Source: an uncultured bacterium (GTDB taxonomy: Bacteria; Patescibacteriota; Minisyncoccia; Phycocordibacterales; UBA9973). Taken from it: a stretch of 44,008 nt of DNA. The DNA lies in contig CAITEG010000004.1 in the NCBI GenBank assembly GCA_903891365.1, positions 1 through 44,008 on the forward strand. The letters run 5' to 3'. Positions 2,944 to 39,299 of this stretch are shown here, in pieces. The translations under genes and the position numbers were made by a program. Every line of letters starts with the position of its first letter. The stretch's first letter is position 1. Under the pieces are notes generated by a model, which saw only the letters and a program-made list of their open reading frames with translations, had not been told where the DNA came from and made no database searches.

Positions 2944-3051
2944 TTATTTTGAATAGATATTTTTTGCTAAATGCCATGCAGCTGAGATTACAAAGGTTAA
3001 AACAAACAATAATCCTATAAATGCAAAACAATCTAAAATTGTCATAATCAT
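2944..3051 (-). CDS. small membrane protein (35 aa, below the ORF-track cut-off)
   Basis: Own translation: MIMTILDCFAFIGLLFVLTFVISAAWHLAKNIYSK. Its ATG overlaps the upstream TGA stop as ATGA (3048-3051). Confidence 0.35.
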   Translation of the reverse strand: MIMTILDCFAFIGLLFVLTFVISAAWHLAKNIYSK

Positions 3052-3287
3052 TTAGTTTTATTAACTTTATTAAGTTTCTGAATACTGTCGTACTTGATCT
3101 GTCGCACTCGCTCTCTAGTCATCTTAAGTTCAACTGCTATCTCTTCTAGAGTGTGACGAGAATAAGATCCGAACCCATAGTATTTCTCTATGATCTCTTG
3201 TTCACGCTTATCAAGTACATTAAAGTTCTTGGTATAAATTGTCAATACCCTTTCCGCTGCTGTGATATTTTTTACTTCTTTTGCCAT
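3048..3287 (-). CDS. stand-alone sigma-70 region-4 (HTH) protein
   Basis: LDKREQEIIEKYYGFGSYSRHTLEEIAVELKMTRERVRQIKYDSIQKL matches the sigma-70 region 4.2 pattern (TLeEIa..l..TRERVRQI). No regions 1-3 are present. I prefer the ATG at 3285-3287 (MAKEV...). The track's longer form starts at a GTG at 3332 inside a hairpin arm. Confidence 0.65.
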   Translation of the reverse strand: MAKEVKNITAAERVLTIYTKNFNVLDKREQEIIEKYYGFGSYSRHTLEEIAVELKMTRERVRQIKYDSIQKLNKVNKTK

Positions 3288-3315
3288 AATTTTTAATAAT
3301 TTTTTATAATATCCG

Positions 3316-3359
3316 ACCTTCGATGTGACCACGAGTTACCGAATGGTCACATCGAAGGT
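3316..3359. promoter_or_regulatory. perfect 16-bp inverted repeat with a 12-nt loop
   Basis: accttcgatgtgacca (3316-3331) pairs with tggtcacatcgaaggt (3344-3359). It lies about 30 nt upstream of the sigma-like gene start. Confidence 0.7.
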
Positions 3360-3540
3360 AAGATGAACGATAATCTTACCTTCTTACCCTCTCGGGTTGT
3401 AAAATAGACTTATTGGGTTTCGGAGAAAAAATGAGCTATTAGCTCTCCCAATAAACCTTCCCGCGCTAATCCTCGTAAGCCACTGAGCCAACTTTGTTTA
3501 GTACCAAGTAAGACATGCCTGCTTACCCAGTACTATAGCC

Positions 3541-3569
3541 AGTGTATACCCCGGGGCTACCTTTGTCAA
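3541..3569 (-). promoter_or_regulatory. possible leftward sigma-70-type promoter
   Basis: The reverse complement of 3564-3569 is TTGACA. After a 17-bp spacer, the reverse complement of 3541-3546 is TACACT. Confidence 0.3.
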
Positions 3570-3573
3570 TACC

Positions 3574-3602
3574 TTGACAGGTTTCACGTTGCTAGCTATA
3601 AT
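3574..3602 (+). promoter_or_regulatory. consensus sigma-70-type promoter
   Basis: TTGACA (3574-3579), an exact 17-bp spacer, then TATAAT (3597-3602). It lies 51 nt upstream of the ATG at 3654. Confidence 0.7.
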
Positions 3603-3653
3603 GAATCCATTAACCAATGGAGGTTGATATTAATACAAGAATAAATTTATTTT

Positions 3654-3977
3654 ATGGCAGATAAAAACAATGAGCCAAAGGCTATTAAAGAAGGTTTACA
3701 AGACGGAGGCATCTATTGCACGCGGGATTTGTATCTAGCAGCTACACTGGTTACCCTCAAATTTTATATGGAGGGGATAGACTACCAAATCGAGGGCACG
3801 AAGAATAACCCTGTCGGTTACTTCAAGTTCACAGAGACACCTGAACTACGTGATGCACGACAGAAGTATCTACAAGGACTGATTCTTGTGGAACCACAAG
3901 ACTATGTTCAGAAGATGCACGCTTTAAAGGCGGAAGTCCAGAACATGTCAATGAACCCCCACAATAAAGTTGCTTAG
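3654..3977 (+). CDS. hypothetical protein (107 aa), possibly DUF5659-like
   Basis: It is the only plus-strand gene in the left arm and has its own consensus promoter. The pattern TRDLYLAATLV...GYFKF resembles my memory of the small phage-associated DUF5659 domain. This was not verified. Confidence 0.5.
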   Translation: MADKNNEPKAIKEGLQDGGIYCTRDLYLAATLVTLKFYMEGIDYQIEGTKNNPVGYFKFTETPELRDARQKYLQGLILVEPQDYVQKMHALKAEVQNMSMNPHNKVA

Positions 3978-6313
3978 TCGTCAACACCTTCAGCCTCTAC
4001 AGCTTCGTTGGTGACAAAGTCATCTTTACTAAAGAGTGAAGCTTTACTAATTAGTTTGAGTGTCTTTGTAGTTGGGTACCACCTATTGTTTCGTACTCCA
4101 CCTATCTGCACTTGTTTCTTTTCTAGGAACAGGATTCTGCGTAGCATACCTCCAATCTTTCTATTCATGTATCCTGGCATATCGCGCCCTAGAGGTGCAT
4201 TACCAAGCCACACGGCTTGATAGACTTGCAAGACGGTAACGCCATCTTCTATATTTCGCGCAAAGTCAGCATACCAAGAGATAAGCTCTTCCTCATGGCC
4301 CTCACTATCCATACGAGATTCCTGGAGATCTGTCAACTCCTCTGGGTACTCCCAAGTAGTCTCGCCATCTTTTATGGCGCGGAAGTATGCTTCGGCTAGA
4401 ATCTGTTCCCTATTCTCTTTAAGCCAATCCAAGTCAGCTGGATGTTCCAGTTTGACAGGGAGGAAACGTCTGTTCCCACTATCATCTTTGAGATACTCTG
4501 TATCATTTGTGGTCATAGCAAAGACGCAGTGACGCTTCATCCTGCTCCAGCCTGATTCATAAGGAAGGCGCACCTGGTCTTCAGTTTTAGTAATAGTGGC
4601 TTTCATTTCCCTAACTTCTGTGCGATTAAGAGTCTCACCCTCTGCAAGCTCTACTATCACATTGTGAGCAAGAAGCATTGCAAAATCCTTGGCTGCCGCC
4701 CCATCTACGCGCGCAGTGGATTCAACGTGCCATTCACCCCCTAGCACGGCTAGAGAGGTTGTTTTCTTCCACCCCTGTGGCCCTTCTAGAACAAGAACCT
4801 CGTCAAATTTACATCCAGGACGAACCACGCGTTTGATGAGACCTTTGATCCAATTAGCCCCTATGGCCTGGTGGAGGGGATCATCCGGCGTGCCATACGT
4901 TTTGTACATCCAAGAATCTAGACGGGGGGACCGGTCCCACTCGAATGATGTGAAGTAGTCGCGCACTGGATTTACTTGGTTGTGGCGTGCATACGCTACT
5001 ACGGAAGCTTCTACTTTTGCGTAGCTTACATTTGCGAAGTGTGGGTAATAGGTGCGCTGGATATAAACTTGGGCATTTATGATAAAAGCCTTGCATAAGT
5101 CTTCCCAAACCCCACGCTCGTTTAGGGCTTCTGTCATATATGAGAAGCTGTTGTAGCGGAAGCGATCTTTTAGATATAGATCTTCTTTAAATATACGTAT
5201 GATATTTTCTTCGTTATTGTCATAGATTAAGCGACCCTTGACACCAGGTTTAGATTGTAGTGTAGCAAGAACCCTCTCCACCTCATCGTCATTGACAACA
5301 GGCGCTCCAGCTTCGCAATGAGACTTACTCCCTTCATAAACTTCACGACACCCTTTTATTGCTTTGTCAATAGTGCGTTCTCTGTAGTTTGGTCGCTTCT
5401 GTGTCTTCTCGCGCGCACCCAATGGAGAGCTCATCCAAGCTTTTTCAATTAGAGTTGCGTCACGACCAAACCAAAAAGCAAGGTGTGAGCAAAGCCCTAA
5501 GTCTGCGGAGCTGTGGTCGCCCGTATATTCGGAAAGATCACCGTCCCAGAGTGCACGAATGGCTTTCCCATTCTTTGAGGCAAACATTTTTTCTAGAAGA
5601 TCGTCGTAGTCTGCGACGCTAGCTCCTGTAGAAATAGGAGTAAGAGAAGCAGTTTCACCCTGTGAAGCGTCCTTACGACCTCCCCAAGGATAGCCCAGCA
5701 AAGCCAGGATTTCCTCTAGCTCTTCTGTCGTGACACTACAGACAGGAACATTACAGATGGTATCGCCAGTAAAGGTAAAGTAACGACCAGACGCATAAAT
5801 CTCAACCTCGGGTTCTCCACGAAGTTTGTATTCTTTCGGTGTGCGATTTAAGATTGGAACATAGCGTTCATCTAATTTGAAAAATGCGTGTATACCAGTG
5901 CCTGAAGGTGACTTCTCCATATAGGTGGACGCTGTTTCTACGAATGGTTGTATCGCCACGTCAAGGATAGGATCGCCATCAGGCCCATAAGCTATGACGT
6001 GATCAAGATCTACCGCAACTATATTTTCTGCTTCAAAGACAACACCAACACCCCCAGCAAGGATGGGAGCTACTCCTTCTTTGTAGTGAAGGTCGCCTAG
6101 GAAGTTTGGACGCGCCTTGTCAACTACGGAATATGTGGTCCAAGTGTTTGGGTCGGTTGAGGAACCGTAGGAACCGTCGTACCGATAGGGTACTTTGGTT
6201 CGACGTTTCTCACCACCCTCCTGGATACTTCGTTCCTCAAGGCGCCAATTCATCCATATCTTTTTTTCTCCATATTCCTTGATGAACTCATTCTCAGTTT
6301 CTTTATCTTTCAT
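3974..6313 (-). CDS. primase-polymerase (Prim-Pol) + PriCT + VirE-like P-loop NTPase (replicative primase/helicase)
   Basis: Prim-Pol motifs AVDLDH and SPSGTGIHAFF. PriCT-like segment GDHSSADLGLCSHLAFWFGRD. Walker A-like LEGPQGWKKTT, Walker B VIVELAEG, then FAMTTN and RRFLPV, as in the VirE/D5-like NTPases. Confidence 0.8.
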   Translation of the reverse strand: MKDKETENEFIKEYGEKKIWMNWRLEERSIQEGGEKRRTKVPYRYDGSYGSSTDPNTWTTYSVVDKARPNFLGDLHYKEGVAPILAGGVGVVFEAENIVAVDLDHVIAYGPDGDPILDVAIQPFVETASTYMEKSPSGTGIHAFFKLDERYVPILNRTPKEYKLRGEPEVEIYASGRYFTFTGDTICNVPVCSVTTEELEEILALLGYPWGGRKDASQGETASLTPISTGASVADYDDLLEKMFASKNGKAIRALWDGDLSEYTGDHSSADLGLCSHLAFWFGRDATLIEKAWMSSPLGAREKTQKRPNYRERTIDKAIKGCREVYEGSKSHCEAGAPVVNDDEVERVLATLQSKPGVKGRLIYDNNEENIIRIFKEDLYLKDRFRYNSFSYMTEALNERGVWEDLCKAFIINAQVYIQRTYYPHFANVSYAKVEASVVAYARHNQVNPVRDYFTSFEWDRSPRLDSWMYKTYGTPDDPLHQAIGANWIKGLIKRVVRPGCKFDEVLVLEGPQGWKKTTSLAVLGGEWHVESTARVDGAAAKDFAMLLAHNVIVELAEGETLNRTEVREMKATITKTEDQVRLPYESGWSRMKRHCVFAMTTNDTEYLKDDSGNRRFLPVKLEHPADLDWLKENREQILAEAYFRAIKDGETTWEYPEELTDLQESRMDSEGHEEELISWYADFARNIEDGVTVLQVYQAVWLGNAPLGRDMPGYMNRKIGGMLRRILFLEKKQVQIGGVRNNRWYPTTKTLKLISKASLFSKDDFVTNEAVEAEGVDD

Positions 6314-6341
6314 GTTAAATTTGATTTAGGATTATTAATTG

Positions 6342-6369
6342 AGTATACCCCCACCACGGAGGTTGTCAA
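6342..6369 (-). promoter_or_regulatory. possible promoter of the primase gene
   Basis: The reverse complement of 6364-6369 is TTGACA. After a 16-bp spacer, the reverse complement of 6342-6347 is TATACT. It lies about 30 nt upstream of the ATG at 6313. Confidence 0.4.
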
Positions 6370-6479
6370 GAGTTGATTTGTCATAAAATTATGGTGTGCA
6401 ATGATTAAAACTCCCAATACATATCATAGCACACCATTGCATCGAAAAAATATGGCGTACCTTGGCCCTACTATCACTG

Positions 6480-6700
6480 GTGCAATCTATGCAACCTATA
6501 CTCTAATGAGTATTGTATAATTATATATATTTATTGTATATAGTATGTAGATAGCATCGTTGCACAGTAGCACGGGTTGCACTTTTGTGTTTTACGGCTT
6601 AGGTACGCCGTATAATCGTCTGCAACGGTCTTGCAACGATCGACGATTTTTGGAATCGTTGCACTTTGAAAAGGGCTGTTTTTACCCAAAAAGGTTCGAT
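6480..6700. other. candidate replication origin: AT-rich block plus TCGTTGCA iterons
   Basis: AT-rich run tattgtataattatatatatttattgtatatagtatgtag (about 6511-6550). It is followed by ATCGTTGCAC at about 6555 and 6655, inverted copies (tgcaacgg, ttgcaacgat) at about 6620-6640, and GTTGCAC at about 6575. gcaacgat / atcgttgc form an 8-bp palindrome pair. Confidence 0.4.
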
Positions 6701-6993
6701 CACCTTCAAAAGGGAGATCCCCGAAACCCTGAACTTTTCCGAAAATGGCAATTTTTAGAAAATCAGACCCCAACTTGAGCTGTGGAAGGAGCTCCAAAAG
6801 CCCCCAACTTTTCTTATTTGACCCTCCTTTTGAACTGGGGCCGGCAAATAAACAATCTACCCCTTGACTTTCCTTATAAATATCGTTTATTAAAAATATT
6901 TAAAACGTTTCAGTACCTTCTACATACATAGATTCCAAGATACCTAAACTCTGAACTTTTTAGATCTGACGTTACGAAGTAACTACAGCACAT

Positions 6994-7027
6994 GAAAAAA
7001 AGCCAGCGGGCAGTGGGCCAACTGGCT
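6994..7027 (-). terminator. rho-independent terminator (minus strand)
   Basis: Stem agccag (7001-7006) / ctggct (7022-7027). The A-run 6994-7000 on the plus strand gives a U-run on the minus-strand transcript. Confidence 0.5.
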
Positions 7028-7160
7028 TAGTTCATTACTGACGTTACTGACTCTCTTGATCTGAAGCGTTTTGTTCAGCCTCAGTTACAGCGAACTCTCT
7101 AGTTACGGTGCCATCTGGGTTGACGGTAATATTGAAGACTTCTCTTATTTCTGGTTCATC

Positions 7161-7415
7161 TTAATCATCGTCATTATCATGCTCGCAGAAACAGTCCTCT
7201 CTAAGTTCCGCACAATCTGGGCAGTAGCAATCACAGTCTTCTTCAGTTTTGCCACAGAGGGGGCAGATTATTACAGCGTCGTGAGGATGGACGTTCCTAA
7301 GGTTTGGTCTATCCTTCAAGCCCCAAGTTGTCTGACGCAGACAGAAAGGTAGTGTTTCTTCTTTAGAGGGTTCACCCCATAGATACTTAGAGCCACGTTT
7401 CTTACGTTTAGCCAT
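7161..7415 (-). CDS. Cys-rich small protein (84 aa)
   Basis: CPLCGKTEEDCDCYCPDCAELREDCFCEH with an acidic tail. It is the last gene of the coupled operon and has an 8-nt overlap with the upstream ORF. Confidence 0.5.
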   Translation of the reverse strand: MAKRKKRGSKYLWGEPSKEETLPFCLRQTTWGLKDRPNLRNVHPHDAVIICPLCGKTEEDCDCYCPDCAELREDCFCEHDNDDD

Positions 7416-7908
7416 GGTGATCGATGTTAACTTGATTAAATGTTCTAATAGCTTCAGTGGCCACTTCAGAACTTATGGCAACTGGATCGGTCCGATGACT
7501 GGATATTGGATCTACAACTCTTAGGTTGAATACTTCAGAATTATCTGTGGGTTCAATATAGATCAGGCGTTGTCTGAATAGACCAGGAGCCTTCAAGATA
7601 ATAGGGCGTACACCGTGGAGCATGCTCATGGCGATCCACTCGACACCATTGAGCTTATAGAACGTGTCACTTAGGACAGTTCTAATGTGGCCTATCCTTC
7701 CTACGGGACCAGCGAGCTCTTGCTTAGTGTTATGTTTGAGACACTTAAGAATAACACCAGCGGCAGTGCGAGGGCGTAAGCCAACCTTGACTACTATCCA
7801 ACTATCTTGTCTAATAGTTACACGATAGTGGCCACCTTGTGGTGTGACGGTGATTGTGCGACTACCCGCTTTGAAGATAGTGGCTTGACTAACAGGTGTT
7901 TGTTCCAT
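7408..7908 (-). CDS. hypothetical protein (166 aa)
   Basis: ORF track. The ATG is at 7906-7908. It overlaps the upstream ORF by 90 nt, and I saw no alternative ATG. Confidence 0.5.
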   Translation of the reverse strand: MEQTPVSQATIFKAGSRTITVTPQGGHYRVTIRQDSWIVVKVGLRPRTAAGVILKCLKHNTKQELAGPVGRIGHIRTVLSDTFYKLNGVEWIAMSMLHGVRPIILKAPGLFRQRLIYIEPTDNSEVFNLRVVDPISSHRTDPVAISSEVATEAIRTFNQVNIDHHG

Positions 7909-8312
7909 ACAAGTTTGTTATAGTCCTTTCGGAATCTAAGTTGATAAAGCCAGACAGACCATCGACAGGCTGTCAGTTCATCAGGACCGAAGAGATGATG
8001 AGCGAGTTCATGGAAGAGGCTTATAATTGAGCCATCCTTTACGAAGATAAAGTAATCGAATTCACCGACTACATATCTTGTTGGTTCTCCTTCCTTTACG
8101 TAGACTGGTTGGGCGTTATATGCATCAGTGATGATATTTACTAATGCTTGCTGGCAGAATCTTTGGTCTATTCTATTGGGCCAATTTCTGTAGCATCTTC
8201 GTTTCCAGTCACTTATTCTTGTCATTAGACCAATTGGATATATTGGTCTTGGTTCTGCCAAGATTTGCTTCTTAGTCGGATATTTACTTGTATCCCGGGT
8301 CATCGTCGTCAT
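7818..8312 (-). CDS. putative zinc metallopeptidase-like protein (HExxH)
   Basis: FHELAHHLFGPDE contains HExxH and resembles the ImmA/IrrE or SprT-type motif. The start is uncertain: ATGs at 8330, 8312 and 8303, and the track uses a GTG at 8378. Confidence 0.45.
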   Translation of the reverse strand: MTTMTRDTSKYPTKKQILAEPRPIYPIGLMTRISDWKRRCYRNWPNRIDQRFCQQALVNIITDAYNAQPVYVKEGEPTRYVVGEFDYFIFVKDGSIISLFHELAHHLFGPDELTACRWSVWLYQLRFRKDYNKLVWNKHLLVKPLSSKRVVAQSPSHHKVATIV

Positions 8313-10239
8313 AATCCATTTCGTCAGCATAAGCCGGCGAGAGTTTAGCTGCCTTGACAATATGGGCAAGTGTTTCACAACGGGAGCGAAACTTATCCAT
8401 TTCAGTCTTGATGTTATTGATGTGCCATCCTATCTGAAGAGGAAGCCCTTCCTCAGCAGCAATATTAACAACCTTCCTTAGATATTCATCAACACGCATC
8501 TCGGTGGCATTCAGAATTGTGGAACCAACTCCTTCAGCTTCTTCTAGGATTTCGAATGGATCTTTATCATCTCCAGTGTTACTTAGTGCTTCTAGCATTA
8601 ACTCCGCTTCTCCTTCAAGTACGTCTACTGGAGTTTGAACACTAGACACTTCTGTAAATTCAGCGTCGGTGATACGTTCATCATCTCTACCCATGGCTGC
8701 ATCAGCCAGAGCCCGAACTCCCTGAGGCTTATTAATCCTTTCTAGAATAGTTAGTGCATAGGAATCGTTCTTAACTACGGCACCAGCTGGTTTGCTTGGG
8801 AAGGCTTCTTCGATATCCTTGTCGAAGTTTTCGGATATCGCATCATTATTTTCATTGTCACATATTTCTGCATCAGTCTTTGGGTTTGTGAATGCTGCAG
8901 CCAAAGCTAGAACAACTTCACAATAAGTGCAGAATTGAAACACTGGCACATATGCCCCAGCGATCTCGCTCATTCTTACATTAGTGAGCTCCCGCCCCAC
9001 CTTGTCAATATCGTCGAAAGTCTTCCATTTCGAGAGATCAAACTTTTTTTCTTCGAGAGCTTCTTCTAGACATTCATCATAAGATACTTCTTGGGTGACT
9101 AGGCCTATACCTTCTACGAAGAGTTCATTTGCTCTCTTAAGATCTCCCATGCTTATGGCTAGATTGAAATCCTTAATAATTCCTTTCCCTTCTAGGGTTT
9201 CAATAGCTGCATGGTCATTAGAGTCAGTGAATACTTTACCTAGTGGCCCACTCATCATTTGATGAACGATGTGGGACTGAGATACGAATTTATATTCGTC
9301 TTCTGTTTTAGATTTATCTCCTCTATTTGGTAATAGCCACATATTTTTTTCTTTGTTCCACTCGTATCCGGCATCCGTCATTCCTTTCTTTAGATCTGCA
9401 TCAGACACCTTGTTTCTATTGGTTCCAAAGCCTATGCTTCTACCACTATAAGACTCCTGTTTAGCTGGCGGTTCAGGAGTATATTTCATCGTGATAGTCT
9501 TCTTGAGTTTAGTGAACGTTACTAGACCGCCTTCTTTATAGACAGCTTCTAGAACTACCACTTCATCTTTCTCTAATGGTTGACCTAGAGTTTCCTCAGA
9601 AGCGAAAGCCCAGCCAGAGTTAGACTCCCAGATTTTCATACCTGCATATCCATTTGTGCCTAGTAGGATTTGATGGATCTTATCATCTTTTGTTCTAGAT
9701 ATTGCCCAGAAGGTGAATCCTCCTTTGGCACCAATATCAGGAATCTTGCCTTCGAAGAATCTAGCTAGTTCAATAGCGATGGCTTCACTATCATTGAACT
9801 TCATGGTATAACTGGCGCTGTTAGCTGCCCAAGCTTTTCTATATTCTGTTTCATATAGATAGCCAGCTTTCTCGTGAACAGCCTTCAATTCCTCATCATT
9901 ACTGATCACACCATTGTGAGCGATGAGCCATTTATATGTCAACTCTTCATTCTCTATTGCCATTGGATGAGTTTGGCTCATTAGATTATCTGAAGAAGTT
10001 GGCATTCGATGATGGAATAATATGTGACGAGATTGAGGGTCAGTATACATGTCATGAAACATCTTTGCTGCCTCAGTTGCACGATCTACACTTACAATTC
10101 CTTTATCATCTATTTTTACTATACCGAACCCACGAGTACCTCTTCCTTGTTGGTCTTCAAATTGATTTACAACATAGTCGATAGCGCGAGCAGGCGGTAT
10201 CTTTTTGTCTTTACTTACCCATCCGATTAGTCCACACAT
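8284..10239 (-). CDS. class-II (Ntn) glutamine amidotransferase domain fused to an ~400-aa acidic uncharacterised C-terminal region
   Basis: Begins MCGLIGW (catalytic Cys2). Also has RGTRGFGIV, LFHHRMPTSS and AHNGVISN, typical of GATase class II. The remainder has no recognised motif. Confidence 0.7.
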   Translation of the reverse strand: MCGLIGWVSKDKKIPPARAIDYVVNQFEDQQGRGTRGFGIVKIDDKGIVSVDRATEAAKMFHDMYTDPQSRHILFHHRMPTSSDNLMSQTHPMAIENEELTYKWLIAHNGVISNDEELKAVHEKAGYLYETEYRKAWAANSASYTMKFNDSEAIAIELARFFEGKIPDIGAKGGFTFWAISRTKDDKIHQILLGTNGYAGMKIWESNSGWAFASEETLGQPLEKDEVVVLEAVYKEGGLVTFTKLKKTITMKYTPEPPAKQESYSGRSIGFGTNRNKVSDADLKKGMTDAGYEWNKEKNMWLLPNRGDKSKTEDEYKFVSQSHIVHQMMSGPLGKVFTDSNDHAAIETLEGKGIIKDFNLAISMGDLKRANELFVEGIGLVTQEVSYDECLEEALEEKKFDLSKWKTFDDIDKVGRELTNVRMSEIAGAYVPVFQFCTYCEVVLALAAAFTNPKTDAEICDNENNDAISENFDKDIEEAFPSKPAGAVVKNDSYALTILERINKPQGVRALADAAMGRDDERITDAEFTEVSSVQTPVDVLEGEAELMLEALSNTGDDKDPFEILEEAEGVGSTILNATEMRVDEYLRKVVNIAAEEGLPLQIGWHINNIKTEMDKFRSRCETLAHIVKAAKLSPAYADEMDYDDDDPGYK

Positions 10240-10241
10240 AT

Positions 10242-12140
10242 TTAGAATGACGCTTGCGCGTTGTTATGATTAATTGTTCCAATAAGATATGATCTTGCTA
10301 CTGGAGATAATGAGTGGGTGATTCGTCCATTGGATGTATCGCTTAAATATTCTACAAGTTCTCTAGCAACTTCTTCTCGTGCTGCTTGGTCTACATTCCA
10401 ATTCCATCGATCATTATTCTGCATGAGTATAATTATTTTCACGAATGGTGATCCAGAATATGGGGCCATTGCTCTTGATAGATCTCTAATTACACCACTG
10501 ATAGCAGAATCAATAGAGTAGCTTCCAGGATTAGTTTCCATTTCAGCTTGTACAGCATCATTGCTTAGTTGTCTAGGATTGTCAGCTCTAGATTCAGCTC
10601 TCTCTAGTCCTACCTCCATCTCTTCTTCTTTCTTCATAGATTCAAGAAGAGGACTTGGTCCAGGGGATAGAGTTGCTGAGTCTAATGGAATGAATGTTTT
10701 AGGAGACTTTTCAAACTTAAGCACAAGTCTGATTAGGGGCTTAATATCTCCTTTTCTTCTCATTTCATATGGAAGACCAATCATTACTCTTCGGTTATCC
10801 TTGGAGCTGATTAATTTTCCAGTACGAGCATTTAACACTCGACCATACATAGGAACAGCTTCATTTTTGTTTCCTATTCGATCAAACTTACTTGACAAGA
10901 GAGAGAAATCTTCTATTGTGGTTATTATTTCATGACCCGCAATAAAGAGTCCATTTTCATCTCTCATTACAAGAGCGTTCAGACCTTTCTTAAGACCGAA
11001 GAGATAATATTCATGCTGTGGTTTCCATCCAAGCGCGATACACCTCTTAGATAATGCTGTGGCAAATTGTTCAACATTCAGGTCTTCATTCCAAGCGAAC
11101 TGACTCATGTTTCTGATTACTGATTCAGGGAATTTAGAAGTCTTTTCTTCGATCTCTTCATCTTTAAAGAAGGATGTTATAGGGATCTTGGCAGATCCTT
11201 GTGTGAAACCCCAACCTTCATTAATAGAATAATGGGCTTTTACTTTCTCTTCCATTACTCTAGATGGAGACATTATAAGTTCAAGTTCTGCTTTATATTC
11301 AGGATAAGCAGGATGAGCTCGTACGAAGGGACGAATTTTGTCCAGATAAGATTTCTGAATGTTCACATAATTATCTAGAAGAAATGGAAGATACTCCTTC
11401 GCTTGTTTCCGGCTTCTGAACAAGACTGGCCCGACAGGTTTCAAGTTGCCCTTGAGAATGCTGTCCCAACAGATTGCCATATAAGCCAACGTCCCGAGAG
11501 CAATCTTTTCTGTGGTTACCCACTCAGCTCCTGGAGCTCGAACTTCAAGAGTGAATCCATCAGCACCGCTAGGGAATTTGAATCTCGGAGTGTCTATTCT
11601 GAAATCGAATAGCTCACCATAGTGGCCAGATTGGAATCCCTTTCTCAATTGACTTGACAGTTTGTTTTCTCCCATCATAATTAGAATGATGAAAGTTCCT
11701 ACAGCTCGTTCAATAGCTGCCCATTTTTCAGTTTTATTACGCCACATCTGATTGAAGTCTTCTGGAATGGCGAGATGGATATGACCACCAGCACTTGCAG
11801 CAATGGTGAGGGTGGACATGTCTACGAATGGAATCTTATCGGCAGCTTGTTTGAATAGAGATTTCATATTAGCCACAACTTCTCGTGGTGTGCCTGGATC
11901 TGGTCTAAGCTCACCAGTAGCATTATGACCATCCCAACCAATATCTCCTCCAGGAAATGCAAATCCAGCAGGTGTCTTTGCTTCTCCTTTGAAGAAAGTT
12001 GTGAAGATCTCTATTGCACTAATTGGTCGAGAGCCACTCACTACAGTGAACTCAGGGTCAGCGCCCACTTTGAATGGGAATTCATAAGCGGGTTTAACTT
12101 TTGGTTCTTCTACCACAGGCTCAACTGTTGTTTCAGTCAT
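10242..12140 (-). CDS. glutamine-synthetase-fold carboxylate-amine ligase (amidoligase), paralog A, with an ~300-aa C-terminal extension
   Basis: VGADPEF, GELRPDPG, SAGGHIHLA and LEVRAPG match the acidic/His/Arg motif series of the GS/GCS2-fold amidoligases. All four are shared with the next gene. Confidence 0.6.
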   Translation of the reverse strand: MTETTVEPVVEEPKVKPAYEFPFKVGADPEFTVVSGSRPISAIEIFTTFFKGEAKTPAGFAFPGGDIGWDGHNATGELRPDPGTPREVVANMKSLFKQAADKIPFVDMSTLTIAASAGGHIHLAIPEDFNQMWRNKTEKWAAIERAVGTFIILIMMGENKLSSQLRKGFQSGHYGELFDFRIDTPRFKFPSGADGFTLEVRAPGAEWVTTEKIALGTLAYMAICWDSILKGNLKPVGPVLFRSRKQAKEYLPFLLDNYVNIQKSYLDKIRPFVRAHPAYPEYKAELELIMSPSRVMEEKVKAHYSINEGWGFTQGSAKIPITSFFKDEEIEEKTSKFPESVIRNMSQFAWNEDLNVEQFATALSKRCIALGWKPQHEYYLFGLKKGLNALVMRDENGLFIAGHEIITTIEDFSLLSSKFDRIGNKNEAVPMYGRVLNARTGKLISSKDNRRVMIGLPYEMRRKGDIKPLIRLVLKFEKSPKTFIPLDSATLSPGPSPLLESMKKEEEMEVGLERAESRADNPRQLSNDAVQAEMETNPGSYSIDSAISGVIRDLSRAMAPYSGSPFVKIIILMQNNDRWNWNVDQAAREEVARELVEYLSDTSNGRITHSLSPVARSYLIGTINHNNAQASF

Positions 12141-13186
12141 GATTTACGTTCTAGATAAGCTTCAAAACCTTTATCTTCATAGGTGAAACGATAGTTCGAC
12201 CAGTGCTTAAGAGGATCACCTCTGAATGATTTCTTAATACCTTTCTCAATAAACTTTTCAAATGCTGGCATACTTCTGTCGTTCAAACTGTGTCCAGTGA
12301 AATTAGGACACCATTTTATAATGATTGGTTTGATTCTATTGAAGTTAGCCAGCGCTAGGTTAAAGTCATTGTTATTAATTGCGTGAACGATTTCGAGTTC
12401 ATTCACGGCTGCCATCAATTCTTTGCCTGCTTTCTTATTCTCTGCAAAGCCGAGACCTTGGCGACATAGTCCCATAACCATACTCATGAGTGTATAGTTT
12501 TTCAACCAGAAGTTGCCTAGAACTCTATATTCAATACCATGAGGTTGAATACGATATTCTCCTGCGCGCCCATAATACTTTCGTCTCTCGATTTCTCCTT
12601 CATCACGATCGAGAAGTACACAAGTGTTACCAACGATAATATCCAGGATCTTTACAATCTTTTCAGCTTCTTTACCATCTTTAAGCATGTTTATTACACA
12701 TTGTTCTGATGATCCAGGAGATGTTCCTAGATGGATATGACCACCGGCACTTCGATAAAGATATTTACTGGCGTCTGGAAGCTGGGGATAGTTTCCATAT
12801 GCATTTAAGCTAGGAGAACATCCAAAGCGTTTGCTATCTGGACTTAGAGAATCCATTTCCTTTTTGGTTACTTTAACCAAAACATTCCAATTGATGGTGA
12901 TACGTTTACCAGCTATTTGTCTTTGGACTCCTTGGAATAGTTCATGGATTCTATAAGAGAAACTTTGACGACAGCGATTGAAGTATGGATTCAGCTCTGC
13001 TTGAATACCATCTATAATCAATTTACCTCCAGATGTATTTATTCCTTCTTTGGGGAGGATTTTTTCTGCACCTATGATTGAACTTGGATTACCCACTAAG
13101 TTCTTTCTTGCGAAAAAGAACTCAGGATCAGCTCCCCAAGTTGGATGCAGATATTTAATTGTGGGTTTGATTTCTGTTTCTGGCAT
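12137..13186 (-). CDS. glutamine-synthetase-fold carboxylate-amine ligase (amidoligase), paralog B
   Basis: WGADPEF, IQAELNP, SAGGHIHLG and IEYRVLGN. It has an ATGA overlap with paralog A (12137-12140). The start at 13186 (MPETEIKP) was chosen by analogy with paralog A (MTETTVEP). The track uses a TTG at 13234. Confidence 0.6.
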   Translation of the reverse strand: MPETEIKPTIKYLHPTWGADPEFFFARKNLVGNPSSIIGAEKILPKEGINTSGGKLIIDGIQAELNPYFNRCRQSFSYRIHELFQGVQRQIAGKRITINWNVLVKVTKKEMDSLSPDSKRFGCSPSLNAYGNYPQLPDASKYLYRSAGGHIHLGTSPGSSEQCVINMLKDGKEAEKIVKILDIIVGNTCVLLDRDEGEIERRKYYGRAGEYRIQPHGIEYRVLGNFWLKNYTLMSMVMGLCRQGLGFAENKKAGKELMAAVNELEIVHAINNNDFNLALANFNRIKPIIIKWCPNFTGHSLNDRSMPAFEKFIEKGIKKSFRGDPLKHWSNYRFTYEDKGFEAYLERKS

Positions 13187-13373
13187 GTTTAATAATAAAA
13201 CCCCATCATGAAGCGACATCTGGAAACGGGGCAATACATTGCAGGTTATTCTTTACTGGTGAATAACAACCAGTTATACAGTTCTGCTTACCTCTTAGTT
13301 AGGCGAGGATATTGTGGATAGCCATTTCCATGTGTCGCCCCACAATGGGGCAACGAATAAATGACTCAGTAGG

Positions 13374-13910
13374 TTAAACTACGTCGTCTGGCGCACTGGC
13401 GGTCTCTTCAATGATCTTCTGAGAAAGACTCTTGAGAGCGTCCTTATCAACTTTCAATTCACCGGTCTTAGCCTTGTCAAGGTTATCAAGAGCACGAGCG
13501 AGCTCATCTTGTGTATCTTTGATATCCTTACCTGCCTCTTCAAGCATACTGGCTAGAGTTTTTGCTGCTTCTTTGTTTTCCTCAGCATCTTCTTTGTCCT
13601 GTTCCTTATACTTATCCTCTAGAGATGCTGATGCAGCAGCAATGTCATCCGCGCTGATACCTGGGACGTTGCCGAGAGCTTGACGCATTGCGTCACGGTG
13701 GGCATCTGACTTGACTTTAGCTTCAGCAATCTCAGTTGCCTCTTCAGCTGCGTCAACGATGACCTTTGAATAATGGCGAATAGCAGTGGCTACGTTCTTC
13801 TTTGCCTCTGTTACACGCTCTTGGATGCGGACAATCATTTGTGCACGTAGAATGTCTCGCGCTTTCTCCTTTGCTGCAGTTGCGACTGAAGCGTAATCAA
13901 TTGTACTCAT
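13374..13910 (-). CDS. hypothetical Ala/Lys/Glu-rich coiled-coil protein (178 aa)
   Basis: ORF track. The composition is typical of a long helix or coiled coil. Confidence 0.5.
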   Translation of the reverse strand: MSTIDYASVATAAKEKARDILRAQMIVRIQERVTEAKKNVATAIRHYSKVIVDAAEEATEIAEAKVKSDAHRDAMRQALGNVPGISADDIAAASASLEDKYKEQDKEDAEENKEAAKTLASMLEEAGKDIKDTQDELARALDNLDKAKTGELKVDKDALKSLSQKIIEETASAPDDVV

Positions 13911-14212
13911 AAATAAAAAATATATGTTAGATTAATAGTGGCGCACAAATCTTAGGAATTCTCTTTATTATATTCCTAAAATCGACGTTTGTCTAGGCTA
14001 TTGCTAATTAAGCACTATCTTGTTATGATAAGTGCTTGGGCAGGGTCAGGTAGAAGGATTGTGGAGGTTTTGTCTTTGAGACATTATGAAAGAACATTGC
14101 TCTCAAATGCGAGCAGCATCTCCTATCCTAACCCCACCCAAACACTAATCGTTTAATGTTTGGGAATTATTCAGGCTTTTGGGAAAATTATATAAAAACC
14201 AAAAACCCAAAA
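13911..14212 (-). other. ORF-free, hairpin-dense leader or candidate ncRNA
   Basis: No ORF longer than 16 codons on the minus strand. Four perfect 7-8-bp stems read on the minus strand: ttttggg/cccaaaa, cccaaaca/tgtttggg, aagcact/agtgctt, ttaggaat/attcctaa. Confidence 0.35.
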
Positions 14213-14232: not shown

Positions 14233-14571
14233 CTAACACCACTCTTTTTGATACCAGTTTTTTTTCTTTCCGAACTTCTTGAACTTTCTGTTGTTCACAG
14301 ACCATACCCACATGTGTAGAATGTTTCCACTGTTTGGATTGAGTCTTGGTCTCATTCTGTGTGTTACACCAAGATCGTTTCTTTTTATGTAATTAGCCAA
14401 TCTTTTTCCTGCCTTTTCTGTGTTTGTACAAGAGAAGATAAGAAAAGCTCTTGGCGTGTCATCAAACCAATCTTGGCAAATGTCTTTTAGAATGCGGTCA
14501 GGAAGATATCCTGAGATGCGATCTATTTCTTTAATTCCACAGCACTCAACACCATCATTAATGTGTGACAT
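14233..14571 (-). CDS. hypothetical protein (112 aa)
   Basis: ORF track. No motif recognised. Confidence 0.5.
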   Translation of the reverse strand: MSHINDGVECCGIKEIDRISGYLPDRILKDICQDWFDDTPRAFLIFSCTNTEKAGKRLANYIKRNDLGVTHRMRPRLNPNSGNILHMWVWSVNNRKFKKFGKKKNWYQKEWC

Positions 14572-15303: not shown

Positions 15304-15367
15304 TCTCTTCGCGTAGTATCAAACTGCGTCTTAAGACTTGCGTAGCATTAAGCTGCGACTTAGTGGC

Positions 15368-15625
15368 TTAAGCAGCCACTTCTACGAATGCTCTGAGATC
15401 TGCATCCTTCTTTCCTTCTCTTTTGATATTCGGATAGAGGATTACGCGATCTCCAGGGCTAAGAGTTACGTTACCAGGAGAGTTACGTCCACTATCAATC
15501 GATAGTGTGAGAAACTCCGTGCCTGGAGCTTTGCTATTAGCGCCTGTTACATTCTTCCACGCTCGACCTACCGGTACGAGCTTGGTGGCTGGCTTTGTGG
15601 CCGCGCCGTTCTGTGTTGTTGCCAT
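15368..15625 (-). CDS. hypothetical protein (85 aa), weakly DUF736-like
   Basis: VGRAWKNVTGANSKAPGTEFLTLSIDS resembles my recollection of the DUF736 core (GAAWKK..K.G..YLSVKLD). It is the first gene of the leftward arm. Confidence 0.45.
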   Translation of the reverse strand: MATTQNGAATKPATKLVPVGRAWKNVTGANSKAPGTEFLTLSIDSGRNSPGNVTLSPGDRVILYPNIKREGKKDADLRAFVEVAA

Positions 15626-15709
15626 ACGATGTTATCGTTTAGCGAATAAGGTAGCTAGCTGAAGCGCTAGCAAGACTGAGAGGCATCTCCTAAGATATAC
15701 CTCTCATAT

Positions 15710-16014: not shown

Positions 16015-16818
16015 ATGATCAAAAAGAAACTAGTGGCTAAGCCTGCTAAGCCTAAGGCGAAGCTTAAGCCTAAGGCGAAGCTTAAGCCTAAAGCGAAGCT
16101 TAAGCCTAAGGCGAAGCTTAAGCCTAAGGCGAAGCCTAAGTCTAAGGCGAAGCTTAAGCCTAAGGCGAAGCCTAAGTCTAAAAAGTCTGAGGTCCTCCTC
16201 AATATTGGTTGCGGCATCACCCTCTTTAAAGACTTCATCAATATTGACAAGTACTTTACAGAAGAGCAACTTCGTCAGGGGGCAACGTCTCACACAGGAC
16301 CATGTGCCAACGCTCTCTACCCGCGCGGAGCATCCTTCCTTCAGGCAGACATGCTAGACTTGCCTATAGACGCAAACTCTGTAGACTATATTGAGTCGAT
16401 GGAAGCCCTGGAGCACCTAAAGTTTTGTGACGTAGAAAAAGCTGTAGCCGAAATGTACCGGGTACTAAAACCTGGAGGCAAACTTGTCTTGTTTATTCCC
16501 GACATGGATGATATGTGTCAAGTCTGGACAGAGAGGATCGGTAGTGGGGCACCCTTCGGGCCGGAGGACTTCTTTCAGATGGTTCAGATGTTTTATGGGA
16601 ATCAAAAACATGACGGCGAATATCACAAGTCTTGTTTCAACGAAACCTACATGGGTCTGATGATGCAGGCAATAGGATTCGAAGCGAGGAATATTAGGAT
16701 AGCCCACTGCAGTCATGGTCAGCAGGTACCCAAGATCCGAGGAGCGTCAGCATCCCCCGCGTGGGACAGCAAAGCTGTGCTCATTATAGGGTTCCTACTT
16801 ATAGAGGCCACTAAGTAG
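16015..16818 (+). CDS. class I SAM-dependent methyltransferase with an N-terminal (KPKAKL)n lysine-rich repeat tail
   Basis: Residues 8-57 are KPAKPKAKLKPKAKLKPKAKL...KPKSKK. These are followed by SAM motif I LLNIGCG, then VDYIESMEALEHL and YRVLKPGGKLVLFIP (Methyltransf_11/23-like). No DPPY/NPPY or PCQ DNA-methyltransferase motif was seen. Confidence 0.75.
   Translation: MIKKKLVAKPAKPKAKLKPKAKLKPKAKLKPKAKLKPKAKPKSKAKLKPKAKPKSKKSEVLLNIGCGITLFKDFINIDKYFTEEQLRQGATSHTGPCANALYPRGASFLQADMLDLPIDANSVDYIESMEALEHLKFCDVEKAVAEMYRVLKPGGKLVLFIPDMDDMCQVWTERIGSGAPFGPEDFFQMVQMFYGNQKHDGEYHKSCFNETYMGLMMQAIGFEARNIRIAHCSHGQQVPKIRGASASPAWDSKAVLIIGFLLIEATK
16036..16180 (+). repeat. 18-bp tandem repeat aagcctaaggcgaagctt (about 7 units, degenerate at the ends)
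   Basis: Near-perfect (single-mismatch) units at 16048-16065, 16066-16083, 16084-16101 and 16102-16119. Variant units extend to about 16178. The repeat is in frame and encodes KPKAKL. Confidence 0.9.
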
Positions 16819-16840
16819 GCTCAGTGGCTTGCCGCAGGCT

Positions 16841-17467
16841 ATGACACTCACAACACTCAAATATTTGATGTGGTTTTTAAACGCCTATAGCGACGAGATA
16901 AAGCCAGAGGCTCGCATCGCTGATTATGGTGGAATAGATAATCCTGACACAGTGATTTTTCCCCAGGTTGTTAAGAAAAGTTTGGCAGGTGCGGGCCGAC
17001 TTAATTATCACGCTCTGGATTTTGATAGTGGGGTAGATCTGCGCAAACCCTTACGGGGTCCTAAGTATGACGTTGGTATTTGTATGGATCTGCTTGAGCA
17101 TTGTAGTGATCCCTTTCTTGTGGCACATAATATTCGAGATAGTCTACGGCACAACGCGCTGCTTTTTGTAACCGCACCATTCATATGGGATCCTCATTTT
17201 TTCCCAAAGGACTATTGGCGTTTCACACCGCAGGGGATTGAAGAGCTTTTTAGTGCCGAAGGTGATCCGAAAGCTATGGATGTCCTCGCTCTAGGTATGG
17301 TTCGTGATCCTAACAAGGGAGAATTTTTACAACTTTGTCGCGTAGTTGCAGTCTTTCGAAAAGCAAAAAAGAAAGATCGAAAACGAGATGATGCGGCTCG
17401 TTCTATCTTTCCTCCAGAGTGGGGAGTAAGAGGGTTTGACAAGACAACATTTGGCATGGTACCATAA
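16841..17467 (+). CDS. methyltransferase-fold protein with a degenerate SAM motif I
   Basis: ARIADYGG (degenerate GxGxG), YDVGICMDLLEHCSDP and NALLFVTAPF follow the layout of class I methyltransferases. The ATG is at 16841. The track uses a TTG at 16829. Confidence 0.5.
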   Translation: MTLTTLKYLMWFLNAYSDEIKPEARIADYGGIDNPDTVIFPQVVKKSLAGAGRLNYHALDFDSGVDLRKPLRGPKYDVGICMDLLEHCSDPFLVAHNIRDSLRHNALLFVTAPFIWDPHFFPKDYWRFTPQGIEELFSAEGDPKAMDVLALGMVRDPNKGEFLQLCRVVAVFRKAKKKDRKRDDAARSIFPPEWGVRGFDKTTFGMVP

Positions 17468-21600: not shown

Positions 21601-21672
21601 GATCGTTCTACTACAGCAAATGGTTATCTGTTAAAGAACTTCACAACAAACGCTACTTCTTACTCGAAGTAG
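18655..21672 (+). CDS. secreted peptidoglycan-binding protein with long Ser/Thr/Val/Asn-rich beta-repeat region (1005 aa)
   Basis: Sec-type signal peptide MSKLKTFVTSAALAVGALAFASSAFA/AG. PG_binding_1-like segment GDTGPAVVALQKQLIADGYL...TGYYGKLTQAAV. Recurring ~100-aa modules follow (e.g. NLRLYVDGVQVGS, NGKIYINGSQVGS, NLTLKDGSSVLGN). Confidence 0.7.
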   Translation: MSKLKTFVTSAALAVGALAFASSAFAAGLTGSQVQSILSLLASFGADSATIANVSAALNGTPVVVSPSFKIGDTGPAVVALQKQLIADGYLKIAAPTGYYGKLTQAAVLAKAASTSSSSFTPVTMVGNGLKVAISSTSPNGTVLVAGQGIGDLGNFVFSNPTATPINVTGLTFKRLGVSNDSTLVNVYLYNGVTRITDSAGVSNGQFSYTDPTALFTVPAGGTYVASVRSDIDSSASGQQIGVSLVSVSSNGTLDSSVVFPISSSYQTVSAATLAGVDFSSVSQSTASISPQSNYPLWQETVSINQNPVKLSSLKLTNLGSIDSSLVQNLRLYVDGVQVGSAAILSDRTATFDFSANPAILNTQNHTIKVVGDIVGGSSRTIELSLQRSSDAMFVDTQLGQPVTMTVNGNVFTPVNGSIITINAVTGSTGISVSIDPASPNQDVALGASSVKWATFDVLVSGENVKLNSLNVSSNVALANGKIYINGSQVGSTKSLGTSAVTFNTSAVLPAGQTSHVEIYADAKTPTGNLSNGQTVIVTLNAGSSNAQGQSSLNTANVPASDTSGNSINVTNSSLSVTRYSGYGSQTIIPGSVSRIGSFTISAGSTEGVTVNTINLSLSAANAASITNLTLKDGSSVLGNVVTTPSISSSYSVNLDILASQTKTIDVYGNVLSGAANGSLVVSVSVSGNGDQTGNTTSSSAVSLQTMTIGSGSLSATVAAGDPVSANIVAGAASINVGQFEFNAVSSAYTIQNLDISVAGTINDVTAVTVTYLDANGNTQTSTQPIVGTVASFSGLNIYVPANDQADVTVSIGTPTIASGAQSGSSVSVGLASSNFRAVDASGRSITTGFTKAAEGTFYVYKSIPTFATLAITSNIPSSGNPLYRFSVTADPKGSIDLSKVTFNLSTTSVSVTNMYVVDEASGLSVGSVGANGAVAMTQQIGAGMSKTYALYGTVGGFTTGSSLTISLAQDTSLSTTNVQWSDRSTTANGYLLKNFTTNATSYSK

Positions 21673-27100: not shown

Positions 27101-27709
27101 ATGGAAGAAGACCTTGATTATGGACCGCCTCTAGAAGAGGAAAAAGTAACAGCAGAAAAACCAATTTCAGAGAGAGGTGAAAGGAAGCGAAAAGAATATG
27201 CAAGTCAGAAGAGACTTTATAATGCCCTGAGTCAGGGTGGGGATCCAATAAAACTGAAGGAGATTATTGGAGCTAAGACTGTTGCCGAGGTTTATAGAAC
27301 CCTTGACAAACTTACAATTAGACGTGAGTTCCATGATGCCCTTACAAAGGCTGGTATTACCTTCGAATTTCTTATTGAAGGAATAAAGCGTGAAGCTATA
27401 GGAGGTGATAAGTCTATGGATCGCCTAAAGGCATATGAAATGCTTCTAAAGACCCTTGGACTAGACAAATATGACGATGTAAATACCGGATCTACTTCGT
27501 CATGGGAGGAAAGATTGCTTAAGGCCATAGAAACTCATGAAACTGATCTAAACCAGGATGTTCCTATGTCTAAAGAAGAAGAAACAGACACTGAATATAA
27601 GGTGAAGGTTCCAAAAATTCCAGTATCGGTTCAAAAAACAAAAATGTTAAATGAGGAAATGGAAAATTCACTTTATGAAGGATTCCCCCAACCAGCAACT
27701 CCAATATAA
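27101..27709 (+). CDS. putative terminase small subunit
   Basis: It lies immediately upstream of, and overlaps, the large terminase gene. It has an HTH-like segment IKLKEIIGAKTVAEVYRTL and is about 200 aa. Confidence 0.45.
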   Translation: MEEDLDYGPPLEEEKVTAEKPISERGERKRKEYASQKRLYNALSQGGDPIKLKEIIGAKTVAEVYRTLDKLTIRREFHDALTKAGITFEFLIEGIKREAIGGDKSMDRLKAYEMLLKTLGLDKYDDVNTGSTSSWEERLLKAIETHETDLNQDVPMSKEEETDTEYKVKVPKIPVSVQKTKMLNEEMENSLYEGFPQPATPI

Positions 27710-39295: not shown

Positions 39296-39299
39296 TTTT

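Follow-up and report, generated by a model that had tools for sequence, protein, structure and literature searches.

A recurrent ligase, glutaminase and zincin-like gene triad in an uncultured tailed phage: a candidate split glutamine-dependent amidoligase

The stretch of DNA analysed here (contig CAITEG010000004.1, 44,008 nucleotides, in its full length called the window below) covers almost all of the ~45-kb genome of a tailed phage that is uncultured, and its minus strand carries at 7161-13234 a block of six consecutive open reading frames (ORFs), here designated A to F. Three adjacent genes of this block, B, C and D, recur together in related contigs and look like a functional unit that combines a ligase-type protein, a glutaminase-type protein and a small zincin-like protein. 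The association of amidoligases with class-II glutamine amidotransferases (GAT-II) in phages has long been known; what is new is the B-C-D triad itself, the three undescribed protein families, and the recurrence with a second ligase family. As a tentative reading, possible rather than probable, we propose that B and C constitute a split glutamine-dependent amidoligase, that D hydrolyses an adjoining bond, that A contributes a second link, and that a cell-envelope peptide is the likeliest substrate. The six ORFs, whose coordinates and coupled junctions were found in the ORF listing just as the first-pass annotation of this DNA had given them, are the following (aa, amino acids):

A, 12137-13234, minus strand: 365 aa, predicted phiEco32-type COOH-NH2 ligase
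B, 10242-12140, minus strand: 632 aa, long remote paralogue of A
C, 8284-10239, minus strand: 651 aa, predicted class-II (N-terminal nucleophile, Ntn) glutamine amidotransferase domain plus tail
D, 7818-8312 (ATG start, 164 aa) or 7818-8378 (GTG start, 186 aa), minus strand: HExxH...E zincin-like protein
E, 7408-7908, minus strand: 166-aa orphan
F, 7161-7415, minus strand: 84-aa Cys-rich acidic protein of zinc-ribbon type

The conservation of gene order is central to the argument. Two sets of loci were compared (L numbers are our handles): the contigs of B homologues, whose ORFs were clustered, together with one contig of a metagenome-assembled genome (MAG), which with the window make up 12 loci (window plus 11), and 11 loci obtained by a scan of IMG/VR with the D alignment. 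In the window and 16 further loci (11 from the one set and 5 from the other), B, C and D lie side by side in a constant order, often with overlaps, at ~30-63% identity of B. The genes are therefore linked and not scattered in relatives, as had been anticipated, and the block, which is kept across many independent contigs, is more than a chance association. Around this triad, A, E, F, G and H (G and H lie upstream of A) come and go or move; A, E and G occur in the close clade, and A in 7 of the 12 first loci. As the linkage of A, G and H survives rearrangement, the functional set may well be larger than six genes. The lengths of B and C co-vary (r = 0.80, 11 loci). In the D-based scan, five loci show the order Z-B-C-D, Z being a zinc-ribbon protein described further below, and in three of them G follows; two others, L024 (C-D-G) and L025 (D-G), end at the contig edge.

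That ligase, glutaminase and zincin act together is supported most strongly by the fact that D also accompanies a glutamine synthetase (GS)-like ligase of another family and an Ntn protein. In L027, positions 3105-5030 encode a 641-aa protein with many CxxC zinc-ribbon motifs in its N-terminal half and an Amidoligase_2 match (PF12224, 3.8e-9) at residues 374-558, which by its motifs is a predicted fusion joining a zinc ribbon to a ligase. This ligase is followed by a 303-aa protein that starts with MCIIIV... and has a weak GATase_4 match, and ~1 kb later by a D-family zincin. In the high-GC contigs L031/L032, D comes after an Amidoligase_2 protein (2.3e-18) and an ORF that contains MCVILT...HNGT as an internal start. 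The Ntn proteins of L027 and L031/L032 match C weakly. In L033, D stands without a visible ligase within 4 kb. Since D adjoins a non-orthologous Amidoligase_2 protein together with an Ntn protein, a shared function is a better account of the association than inherited order alone.

Judged by its sequence, A is a canonical phiEco32-type carboxylate-amine ligase with the predicted fold of GS and gamma-glutamylcysteine synthetase (GS/GCS fold). It matches PF14395 (COOH-NH2_lig) with 34.5 bits at a gathering score of 25 (E 1.7e-8) and phrog_3815, 'COOH.NH2 ligase', at 1.6e-40, and relatives with <33% identity are present in 306 GenBank phage records (tblastn), including Bruynoghevirus, Zobellviridae and other Pseudomonas, Escherichia and Vibrio phages. 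The residues that are invariant in 10 sequences include E38, E80, H166, H168, E235 and R237. PDB searches with A or C as single sequences gave noise or weak matches only. In case of B, the PF14395 score of 19.4 bits is sub-threshold, and the family is precomputed for 44 of 49 B homologues with <96% identity. GADPEF, ELxP, AGGHIHL and E(V/Y)R are found in both proteins. The first-pass annotation had called A and B clear paralogs, and while the paralogy is supported by profile-profile comparison (probability 96.9%, E 1.7e-10, 173 columns), the relationship is remote rather than clear, with 23% identity and E 0.003 in BLASTP. It had also treated Amidoligase_2 and the phiEco32-like ligases as one family; PF14395 indeed covers A and B, but PF12224 is a separate family. 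Nor is there a duplicated ligase-amidotransferase pair, as only the ligase is present in two copies, next to a single GAT-II.

B is laid out as a ligase core at ~20-210, a conserved domain at ~212-520 and a variable tail. Its AlphaFold2 (AF2) model (predicted local distance difference test, pLDDT, 85.9) matches in Foldseek GshF (3ln7), YbdK (1r8g), glutamine synthetases, glutamate-cysteine ligases and Dop with E values of 2e-6 to 1e-3, at template-modelling (TM) scores that are low (0.2-0.47); gamma-glutamylmethylamide synthetase is also among the structural neighbours. According to this model, B would adopt the GS/glutamate-cysteine-ligase fold and carry an extra ~300-aa domain. The placement of the two GGHIHL proteins within the GS/GCS2 fold is upheld by these results, A by passing PF14395 and B by the matches of its model to GS and glutamate-cysteine ligase structures. 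In the ligase core of B, E30, E77, R79, H120, E199 and R201 are invariant in 47 sequences, and in the extension Y279, K299, G309, W310, D353, G382, P457 and R461. A and B thereby both carry a Glu/Glu/His/Glu-Arg series in the same order, and we take these residues to be metal and phosphate ligands. Residues ~212-520 of B are confidently folded in the model, and profile searches found no Pfam or PDB relative of this extension.

C starts with MCGLIGW and carries HNGVISN. Its family profile matches PurF (8w7d at 5e-7, 1ecb at 9e-6) and GlmS/GFAT (8.5e-5), all aligned from Cys1, and the following residues are invariant in 35 homologues: C2, G3, R33, H76-H77-R78, P80-T81, H108-N109-G110, D150 and E152. 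R78 and N109-G110 align to HVRYPT and HNG of PurF, and D150 (NDSE), which lies beyond the PurF profile alignment, presumably corresponds to the SDSE motif of PurF. Residues ~1-235 are thus a predicted class-II (Ntn) glutamine amidotransferase domain with predicted glutaminase activity and Cys2 as nucleophile, which agrees with the earlier assignment of the MCG protein. C scores under every curated whole-protein or Pfam cut-off, e.g. 21.6 bits against a cut-off of 27 for GATase_6, and the NCBIfam models of GlmS, PurF and AsnB match its N-terminus only (residues 1-132). The tail of ~410 aa is acidic (net charge -31), largely helical and variable, and searches of residues 240-651 in Pfam, PHROGs, NCBIfam and PDB found no synthase or other domain. 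Because the tail matches no recognisable domain, C is not the amidotransferase fusion that had been supposed but a stand-alone glutaminase-type subunit, and because it carries no synthase domain, the acceptor enzyme must act in trans.

The third member of the triad, D, contains the sequence HELAHH and belongs to a family with 292 clusters at E<=1e-3 in a representative library of 1.84 billion proteins, one of them spurious. P12, S95, H101, E102, H105, E112 and S119 are invariant in 90 sequences, C116 and H139 nearly so, and the conserved elements are an N-terminal YPTKxEIL and the signature HExxHxxxGxxE...AC, in which the second Glu, the putative third ligand, follows seven residues after HExxH. 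The AF2 model (pLDDT 89.9) shows three strands, the HExxH helix at 96-108 and a helix at 112-126 that bears E112, and this predicted arrangement suggests a minimal, zincin-like layout. No significant PDB match was found with Foldseek, the best being PprI/IrrE, selecase and astacins at E >= 0.26; the best match in BFVD is an uncharacterised phage protein (1.7e-3), and no Pfam, PDB-sequence or NCBIfam family covers D. The proposal that the HExxH protein is a peptidase is plausible with regard to motif and predicted topology, but it is not backed by a match to a known peptidase family. Two candidate relatives were rejected. P0087, the top D 'homologue' in the representative library, has 2175 aa with 40 identical 54-aa repeats and no HExxH; it is the spurious cluster and possibly an assembly artefact. 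The other is the ~190-aa protein encoded after the ligase gene of LUZ24-like and Zobellviridae cassettes, which also has no HExxH and does not align with D.

The genes of the block are tightly packed. A and B have an ATGA in common, B and C are separated by a 2-nt gap, E and F overlap by 8 nt, and C and D by 29 nt when D starts at the ATG at 8312. This start is favoured over the GTG at 8378 because the alignments of D homologues begin only at residues 27-32 of the 186-aa ORF. D and E overlap by as much as 91 nt in the window and by 52-133 nt in five of five close relatives, and since in five related contigs the alignment of E begins at residue 1 and all five have such an overlap, the overlap in the window is real. 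The TTG start of A is uncertain, with alternative ATGs at residues 6 and 17. No Shine-Dalgarno-like motif precedes the starts at 13910, 13234, 12140, 10239, 8312, 7908 and 7415, the leaders being AT-rich, and the overlapping codons are therefore the visible coupling signal. Two candidate transcription signals and two further genes complete the arrangement:

intrinsic-terminator-like hairpin with U-run, 6994-7028, minus strand: 133 nt past the stop codon of F
sigma-70-like promoter match TAGACA-17-TATAAT, 13967-13995, minus strand: upstream of G, weak
G, 13374-13910, minus strand: 178-aa acidic coiled-coil protein, upstream of A
H, 14233-14571, minus strand: 112 aa, N-terminal CCG(I/L)xE motif

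The hairpin has a folding free energy of -25.3 kcal/mol (z -4.56), and in RNA folding none of 200 shuffles (0/200) folds as well, so that 7028-6994 is probably the 3' end of the transcription unit. Owing to this hairpin and its U-run after F, the block is probably a transcription unit of its own, apart from the primase-helicase gene, which argues against the earlier view that it is expressed with the replication genes. The promoter match upstream of G agrees with 11 of 12 sigma-70 consensus positions, but the host may not use such promoters, and the overall sigma-70 promoter scan was not enriched over shuffles. A search of the whole window against Rfam gave nothing. Between F and the primase-helicase gene, ~850 bp (6314-7160) contain no convincing ORF; besides the hairpin, this region has an AT-rich run at ~6510-6545, and the primase start is closely preceded by a promoter match (TTGACA-16-TATACT, 6369-6342). 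The region may hold regulatory elements or an origin. Related contigs have a comparable gap of ~560-590 bp between block and primase.

The small proteins are less uniform. E has five homologue clusters in a database of 5.8 billion proteins and no family match in Pfam, PHROGs or NCBIfam, and its description as an orphan is thus appropriate. It occurs in five loci of the close clade with the conserved core RPIILKAPxLFRQRLIYIEP...LRVVDP. Four homologues end in Gly, and a ubiquitin- or Pup-like tag was considered, but further homologues show variable ends (HHG, HGR, SQR, SAR, QGK, TRG, GRG and TFTP), on which the overlap with the start of F probably places a constraint. The 84 residues of F include 9 Cys, in keeping with the zinc-binding type that had been assigned to it, and the pattern CPxCG...CxC...YCPxC...CxC is common to its homologues in L005 and L010; it is found in three loci, and in distant loci other Cys-rich ORFs follow D. 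Lenient hidden Markov model (HMM) searches for E and F homologues in the distant loci gave only matches of E>1. The HMM of G matches in all five loci of the close clade and, in addition, ORFs that directly follow D in L013, L014, L021, L024, L025, L026 and L030 (E 7e-9 to 1.6e-4), i.e. G lies upstream of A in the window and downstream of D elsewhere; scans of Pfam, PHROG and NCBIfam assign it to no known family. H travels with A: in L004, L005 and L009 its homologues lie upstream, and L014 (two copies) and L021 have them beside A. Profile searches gave no Pfam or PDB match for H. The full set, in the order A-H-Z-B-C-D-G, is present in L021, a 14-kb contig of the GTDB MAG JBAYME010000021.1 labelled Candidatus Paceibacterota; as a phage contig was probably binned into this MAG, the label is an unreliable host assignment.

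Z is a double zinc-ribbon protein in which two CxxC pairs surround a variable acidic loop rich in Asp, Ser and Thr, followed by a second ribbon. Z is found in the more distant relatives, and in 10 of the 17 B-C-D loci (the window and 16 others) its gene immediately precedes B. The window has no counterpart, and a lenient HMM search could not show homology between F and Z. Z genes are located as follows:

L007, 9547-9996
L012, 2945-3397
L011, 8973-9998
L013, 5574-5993
L014, 4809-5501
L021, 4270-4947
also in L023, L026 and L028-L030

As to the phage itself, terminase, portal and capsid genes are on the plus strand, and the NrS-1-like prim-pol/VapE helicase is on the minus strand. The terminase is ~30% identical to that of any GenBank phage, Flavobacterium phages being among the best matches, and the same phage is present on at least 23 contigs, the longest of 44.9 kb (from ERZ27313068). 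The absence of Shine-Dalgarno motifs together with these Flavobacterium phage matches hints at a host that does not rely on Shine-Dalgarno or sigma-70 consensus sequences, such as Bacteroidota. The primase-helicase gene (3974-6313, minus strand) encodes 779 aa with an NrS-1-polymerase-like helix-bundle domain and a VapE-type helicase domain, with PHROG primase matches too; a separate DNA polymerase was not seen in the window. A 94-aa protein that is essentially sigma-70 region 4 (3048-3332, minus strand; PF04545, 1.4e-12) is conserved beside the primase region in L005, L009 and L010. On the plus strand, a NUMOD3 plus HNH homing-endonuclease-type gene (29189-29710) is flanked by the genes for the large terminase (27651-29153) and the portal protein (29732-31921), and three genes (16015-16818, 16829-17467 and 41324-42004) are of the class-I S-adenosylmethionine-dependent methyltransferase type (Methyltransf_11/12/25); the first two are adjacent and divergent from the amidoligase arm, with a homologue at the same place in L005, L010 and L011. 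Two plus-strand genes encode PG_binding_1 proteins, one of 1005 aa (18655-21672) with a weak endolysin-PHROG match, and one of 370 aa (39264-40376) with a weak match to the papain family (Peptidase_C1), which is probably a peptidase-type endolysin. In the related locus L009, an Acb2/Tad1-hairpin-domain gene (anti-defence sponge family; 15347-15655) and a peptide deformylase gene (2276-2698) lie near the block.

How could these proteins function together? In the mechanism that we tentatively propose, the block would be a phage operon of the early or middle class whose products form amide bonds at the expense of ATP and glutamine, with B, C and D as its conserved core. C would use Cys2 to hydrolyse the gamma-amide of glutamine or a gamma-glutamyl amide and would hand the ammonia or amine to B, which would activate a substrate carboxylate with ATP as acyl-phosphate and form the amide. 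The 300-aa domain of B and the helical tail of C could serve substrate binding and docking, D as a small zinc hydrolase-like protein would trim or unmask a peptide-like substrate or product, and A may add a second amide-linked group. Conserved residues and predicted folds speak for the enzymology of each part; that B and C are partners, that ammonia or an amine is passed between them, that D acts as a hydrolase and which target is served is what we infer. A carboxylate of the peptidoglycan stem peptide or its precursor would be the likeliest class of substrate, and the altered wall of the infected cell could result in superinfection exclusion or in a control of lysis. The cell wall is suggested as target by the published prediction for the wider cassette (PMC11945000, PMC10580990), taken together with the two PG_binding_1 proteins of the window, one of them papain-like. 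Both papers credit Iyer et al. 2009 with the hypothesis of a role in the cell wall or in superinfection and describe the function as still to be explored, so that the phage amidoligase and GAT-II prediction which the first-pass annotation had mentioned does exist; the literature consulted, up to 2025, still calls the function of the cassette unexplored.

Several points weigh against this proposal. All B-carrying loci belong to one broad phage group with a common layout, and part of the synteny is therefore inherited. The conserved pocket of C, as far as its residues tell, would fit an amidohydrolase as well as an ammonia donor, and stand-alone GAT-II-like proteins are often amidohydrolases, such as EgtC, and not ammonia donors. 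GS-fold ligases take free ammonia or amines, and to our knowledge none has a glutaminase partner. In Pfam, PDB and Foldseek searches, no peptidase matched D significantly in sequence or in structure, and the cell-wall target would be carried over by analogy from the 2009 prediction for a cassette with which the block shares only A, besides a GGACT gene in relatives. Moreover, it assigns no role to E, F, G, H or the zinc-ribbon partner.

Other functions can account for part of the same observations. The proteins could belong to a small-molecule gamma-glutamyl-amine metabolism, in which A, B or both gamma-glutamylate an amine (e.g. a polyamine, amino acid or thiol precursor), C is an EgtC- or YafJ-like amidohydrolase, and the phage sequesters, detoxifies or makes a soluble metabolite. 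The glutamate-cysteine ligases, GshF and gamma-glutamylmethylamide synthetase among the structural neighbours of B would agree with such a pathway, and stand-alone GAT-II domains are the gamma-glutamyl hydrolases of ergothioneine synthesis. A GGACT gene (PF06094) inside or near the block in L004, L005 and L009, a Peptidase_C26/class-I GATase gene near the block in L005 and the GGCT of the canonical cassette point in the same direction. As GGACT is absent from 9 of the 12 first loci and its HMM found nothing in six frames of the window, and as the invariant D, the fusion of the zinc-ribbon partner to a ligase in L027 and the large B domain would be left unexplained, we regard this metabolic function as unlikely. 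Alternatively, the ligases might amidate or cross-link carboxylates of the acidic loop of F or Z or of a host protein, with D as maturation or removal peptidase, in functional analogy to PafA/Dop-type tagging or to the tailoring of ribosomal peptides. The Dop match of the B model, the position of Z directly upstream of B, the CxxC ribbons fused to Amidoligase_2 in L027, F and the other Cys-rich ORFs after D, and the universal presence of a peptidase-like partner would all be in line with this. B-C-D and the zinc-ribbon partner would then be an unrecognised phage machine that rewrites carboxylates of proteins or peptides, in which the Ntn glutaminase feeds the ligase and the zincin matures or removes the product. 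However, E has no conserved C-terminal Gly-Gly, Gln or Glu tail, homology between F and Z could not be demonstrated, and a ligase-fused ribbon could be an adaptor or subunit as readily as a substrate. Such protein modification is in our estimation quite unlikely, and the same holds for the machine as a whole.

A hypermodification of DNA or nucleotides, by which a base or its precursor would be decorated against restriction, is very unlikely and the least supported of the targets that had been put forward. Some viral contigs do combine amidoligase and amidotransferase Pfam domains with genes for thymidine hypermodification (PMC8989533), and the block lies beside replication genes. Yet Pfam and PHROG scans of the window ORFs of >=90 aa found no dUMP/dCMP hydroxymethylase, 5-HMUDK, aGPT-Pplase, TET/JBP, DpdA/TGT, transglycosylase or glycosyltransferase, and no base-precursor, kinase or DNA-binding genes; B, C and D have no nucleic-acid-binding domain, and the terminator-like hairpin parts the block from the primase gene. 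Finally, the genes might not form a system at all, their adjacency going back to common descent while the proteins act independently. The B loci do have a common layout, with a divergent arm of methyltransferase, AAA and ~1000-aa genes and a VapE-type primase-helicase nearby. This is nevertheless extremely unlikely, since B, C and D stay adjacent at ~30% identity while the small genes around them turn over, A, G and H shift position and yet stay linked, start and stop codons overlap, and D recurs with another ligase family and an Ntn protein in unrelated contigs, one of them high-GC.

The phage amidoligase and GAT-II cassettes, which are widespread, have been annotated since 2009, and the variant described here narrows the old question of their chemistry to a compact, strictly conserved triad of ligase, glutaminase and zincin. 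As this triad recurs with two ligase families, a three-protein set is defined for expression and assay. The extra domain of B, the D zincin (~290 clusters) and the zinc-ribbon partner are added as three undescribed families. The B, C and D families are so far absent from cultured phages, as B, C and three D variants gave no tblastn match in 50,697 GenBank phage genomes; a search for DNA nearly identical to the block among GenBank phages and scans of IMG/VR with B or C as single proteins likewise gave nothing. If B and C indeed form a split amidotransferase, a GS-fold synthetase and a class-II glutaminase would be combined in a way that is new; if the triad were a carboxylate-rewriting machine, it would be a viral counterpart of Pup- and tubulin-type amino-acid ligation and a new architecture of glutamine-dependent amidotransferases.

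With regard to its individual proteins, the triad resembles several known systems only in part. C has the N-terminal Cys nucleophile, the Arg/Asn-Gly/Asp glutamine pocket and the alignment from residue 1 in common with PurF, GlmS and AsnB, but in these enzymes the glutaminase is fused to a synthase domain, whereas C has a variable acidic helical tail. D resembles the minimal zincins (ImmA/IrrE-PprI M78, selecase-type minigluzincins and SprT-like proteins) in its HExxH with a downstream Glu and an active-site helix after a small sheet, but no match is significant (best PDB E 0.26), and D has its own YPTKxEIL and HExxHxxxGxxE...AC motifs. PafA and Dop, which work together on a carboxylate-amide bond, are like A and B two paralogues of the GS/glutamate-cysteine-ligase fold, and Dop is among the structural matches of B; in contrast to the Pup system, the E homologues include no tag that resembles Pup by ending in a conserved Gln or Glu, and the Ntn partner is of the Cys1 glutaminase type and not a Thr1 proteasome subunit. 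MurT/GatD is a precedent for a split design, in which a ligase and a glutaminase encoded by co-transcribed genes amidate peptidoglycan glutamate (PMC3267633). The proposed mechanism would be functionally similar, with a separate ATP-dependent ligase and a separate glutaminase acting on a peptide carboxylate, but the folds are unrelated: MurT/GatD pairs a Mur-ligase-like enzyme with a class-I-type glutaminase and has no zincin partner, while the phage proteins pair a GS/GCS fold with a class-II Ntn domain.

The closest relative is the canonical phage amidoligase cassette of phiEco32, the LUZ24-like phages (Bruynoghevirus), Zobellviridae and others with phrog_3815, in which COOH-NH2_lig, Amidoligase_2, GAT-II, ATP-grasp and GGCT genes lie upstream of the primase gene. 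As in this cassette, the ligase A belongs to PF14395/phrog_3815, a GAT-II is encoded in the same operon, and the block is located in the early region just upstream of the primase-helicase, as in HZ2201 and phage T2S2; relatives of the window also have GGACT. The window differs in that Amidoligase_2, ATP-grasp and GGCT are missing (Pfam scans of the window ORFs and the six-frame GGACT search), and the B, C and D HMMs detect nothing in three canonical cassettes. The two arrangements thus share only A, and the 300-aa domain of B as well as D, E, F, G and H are new parts.

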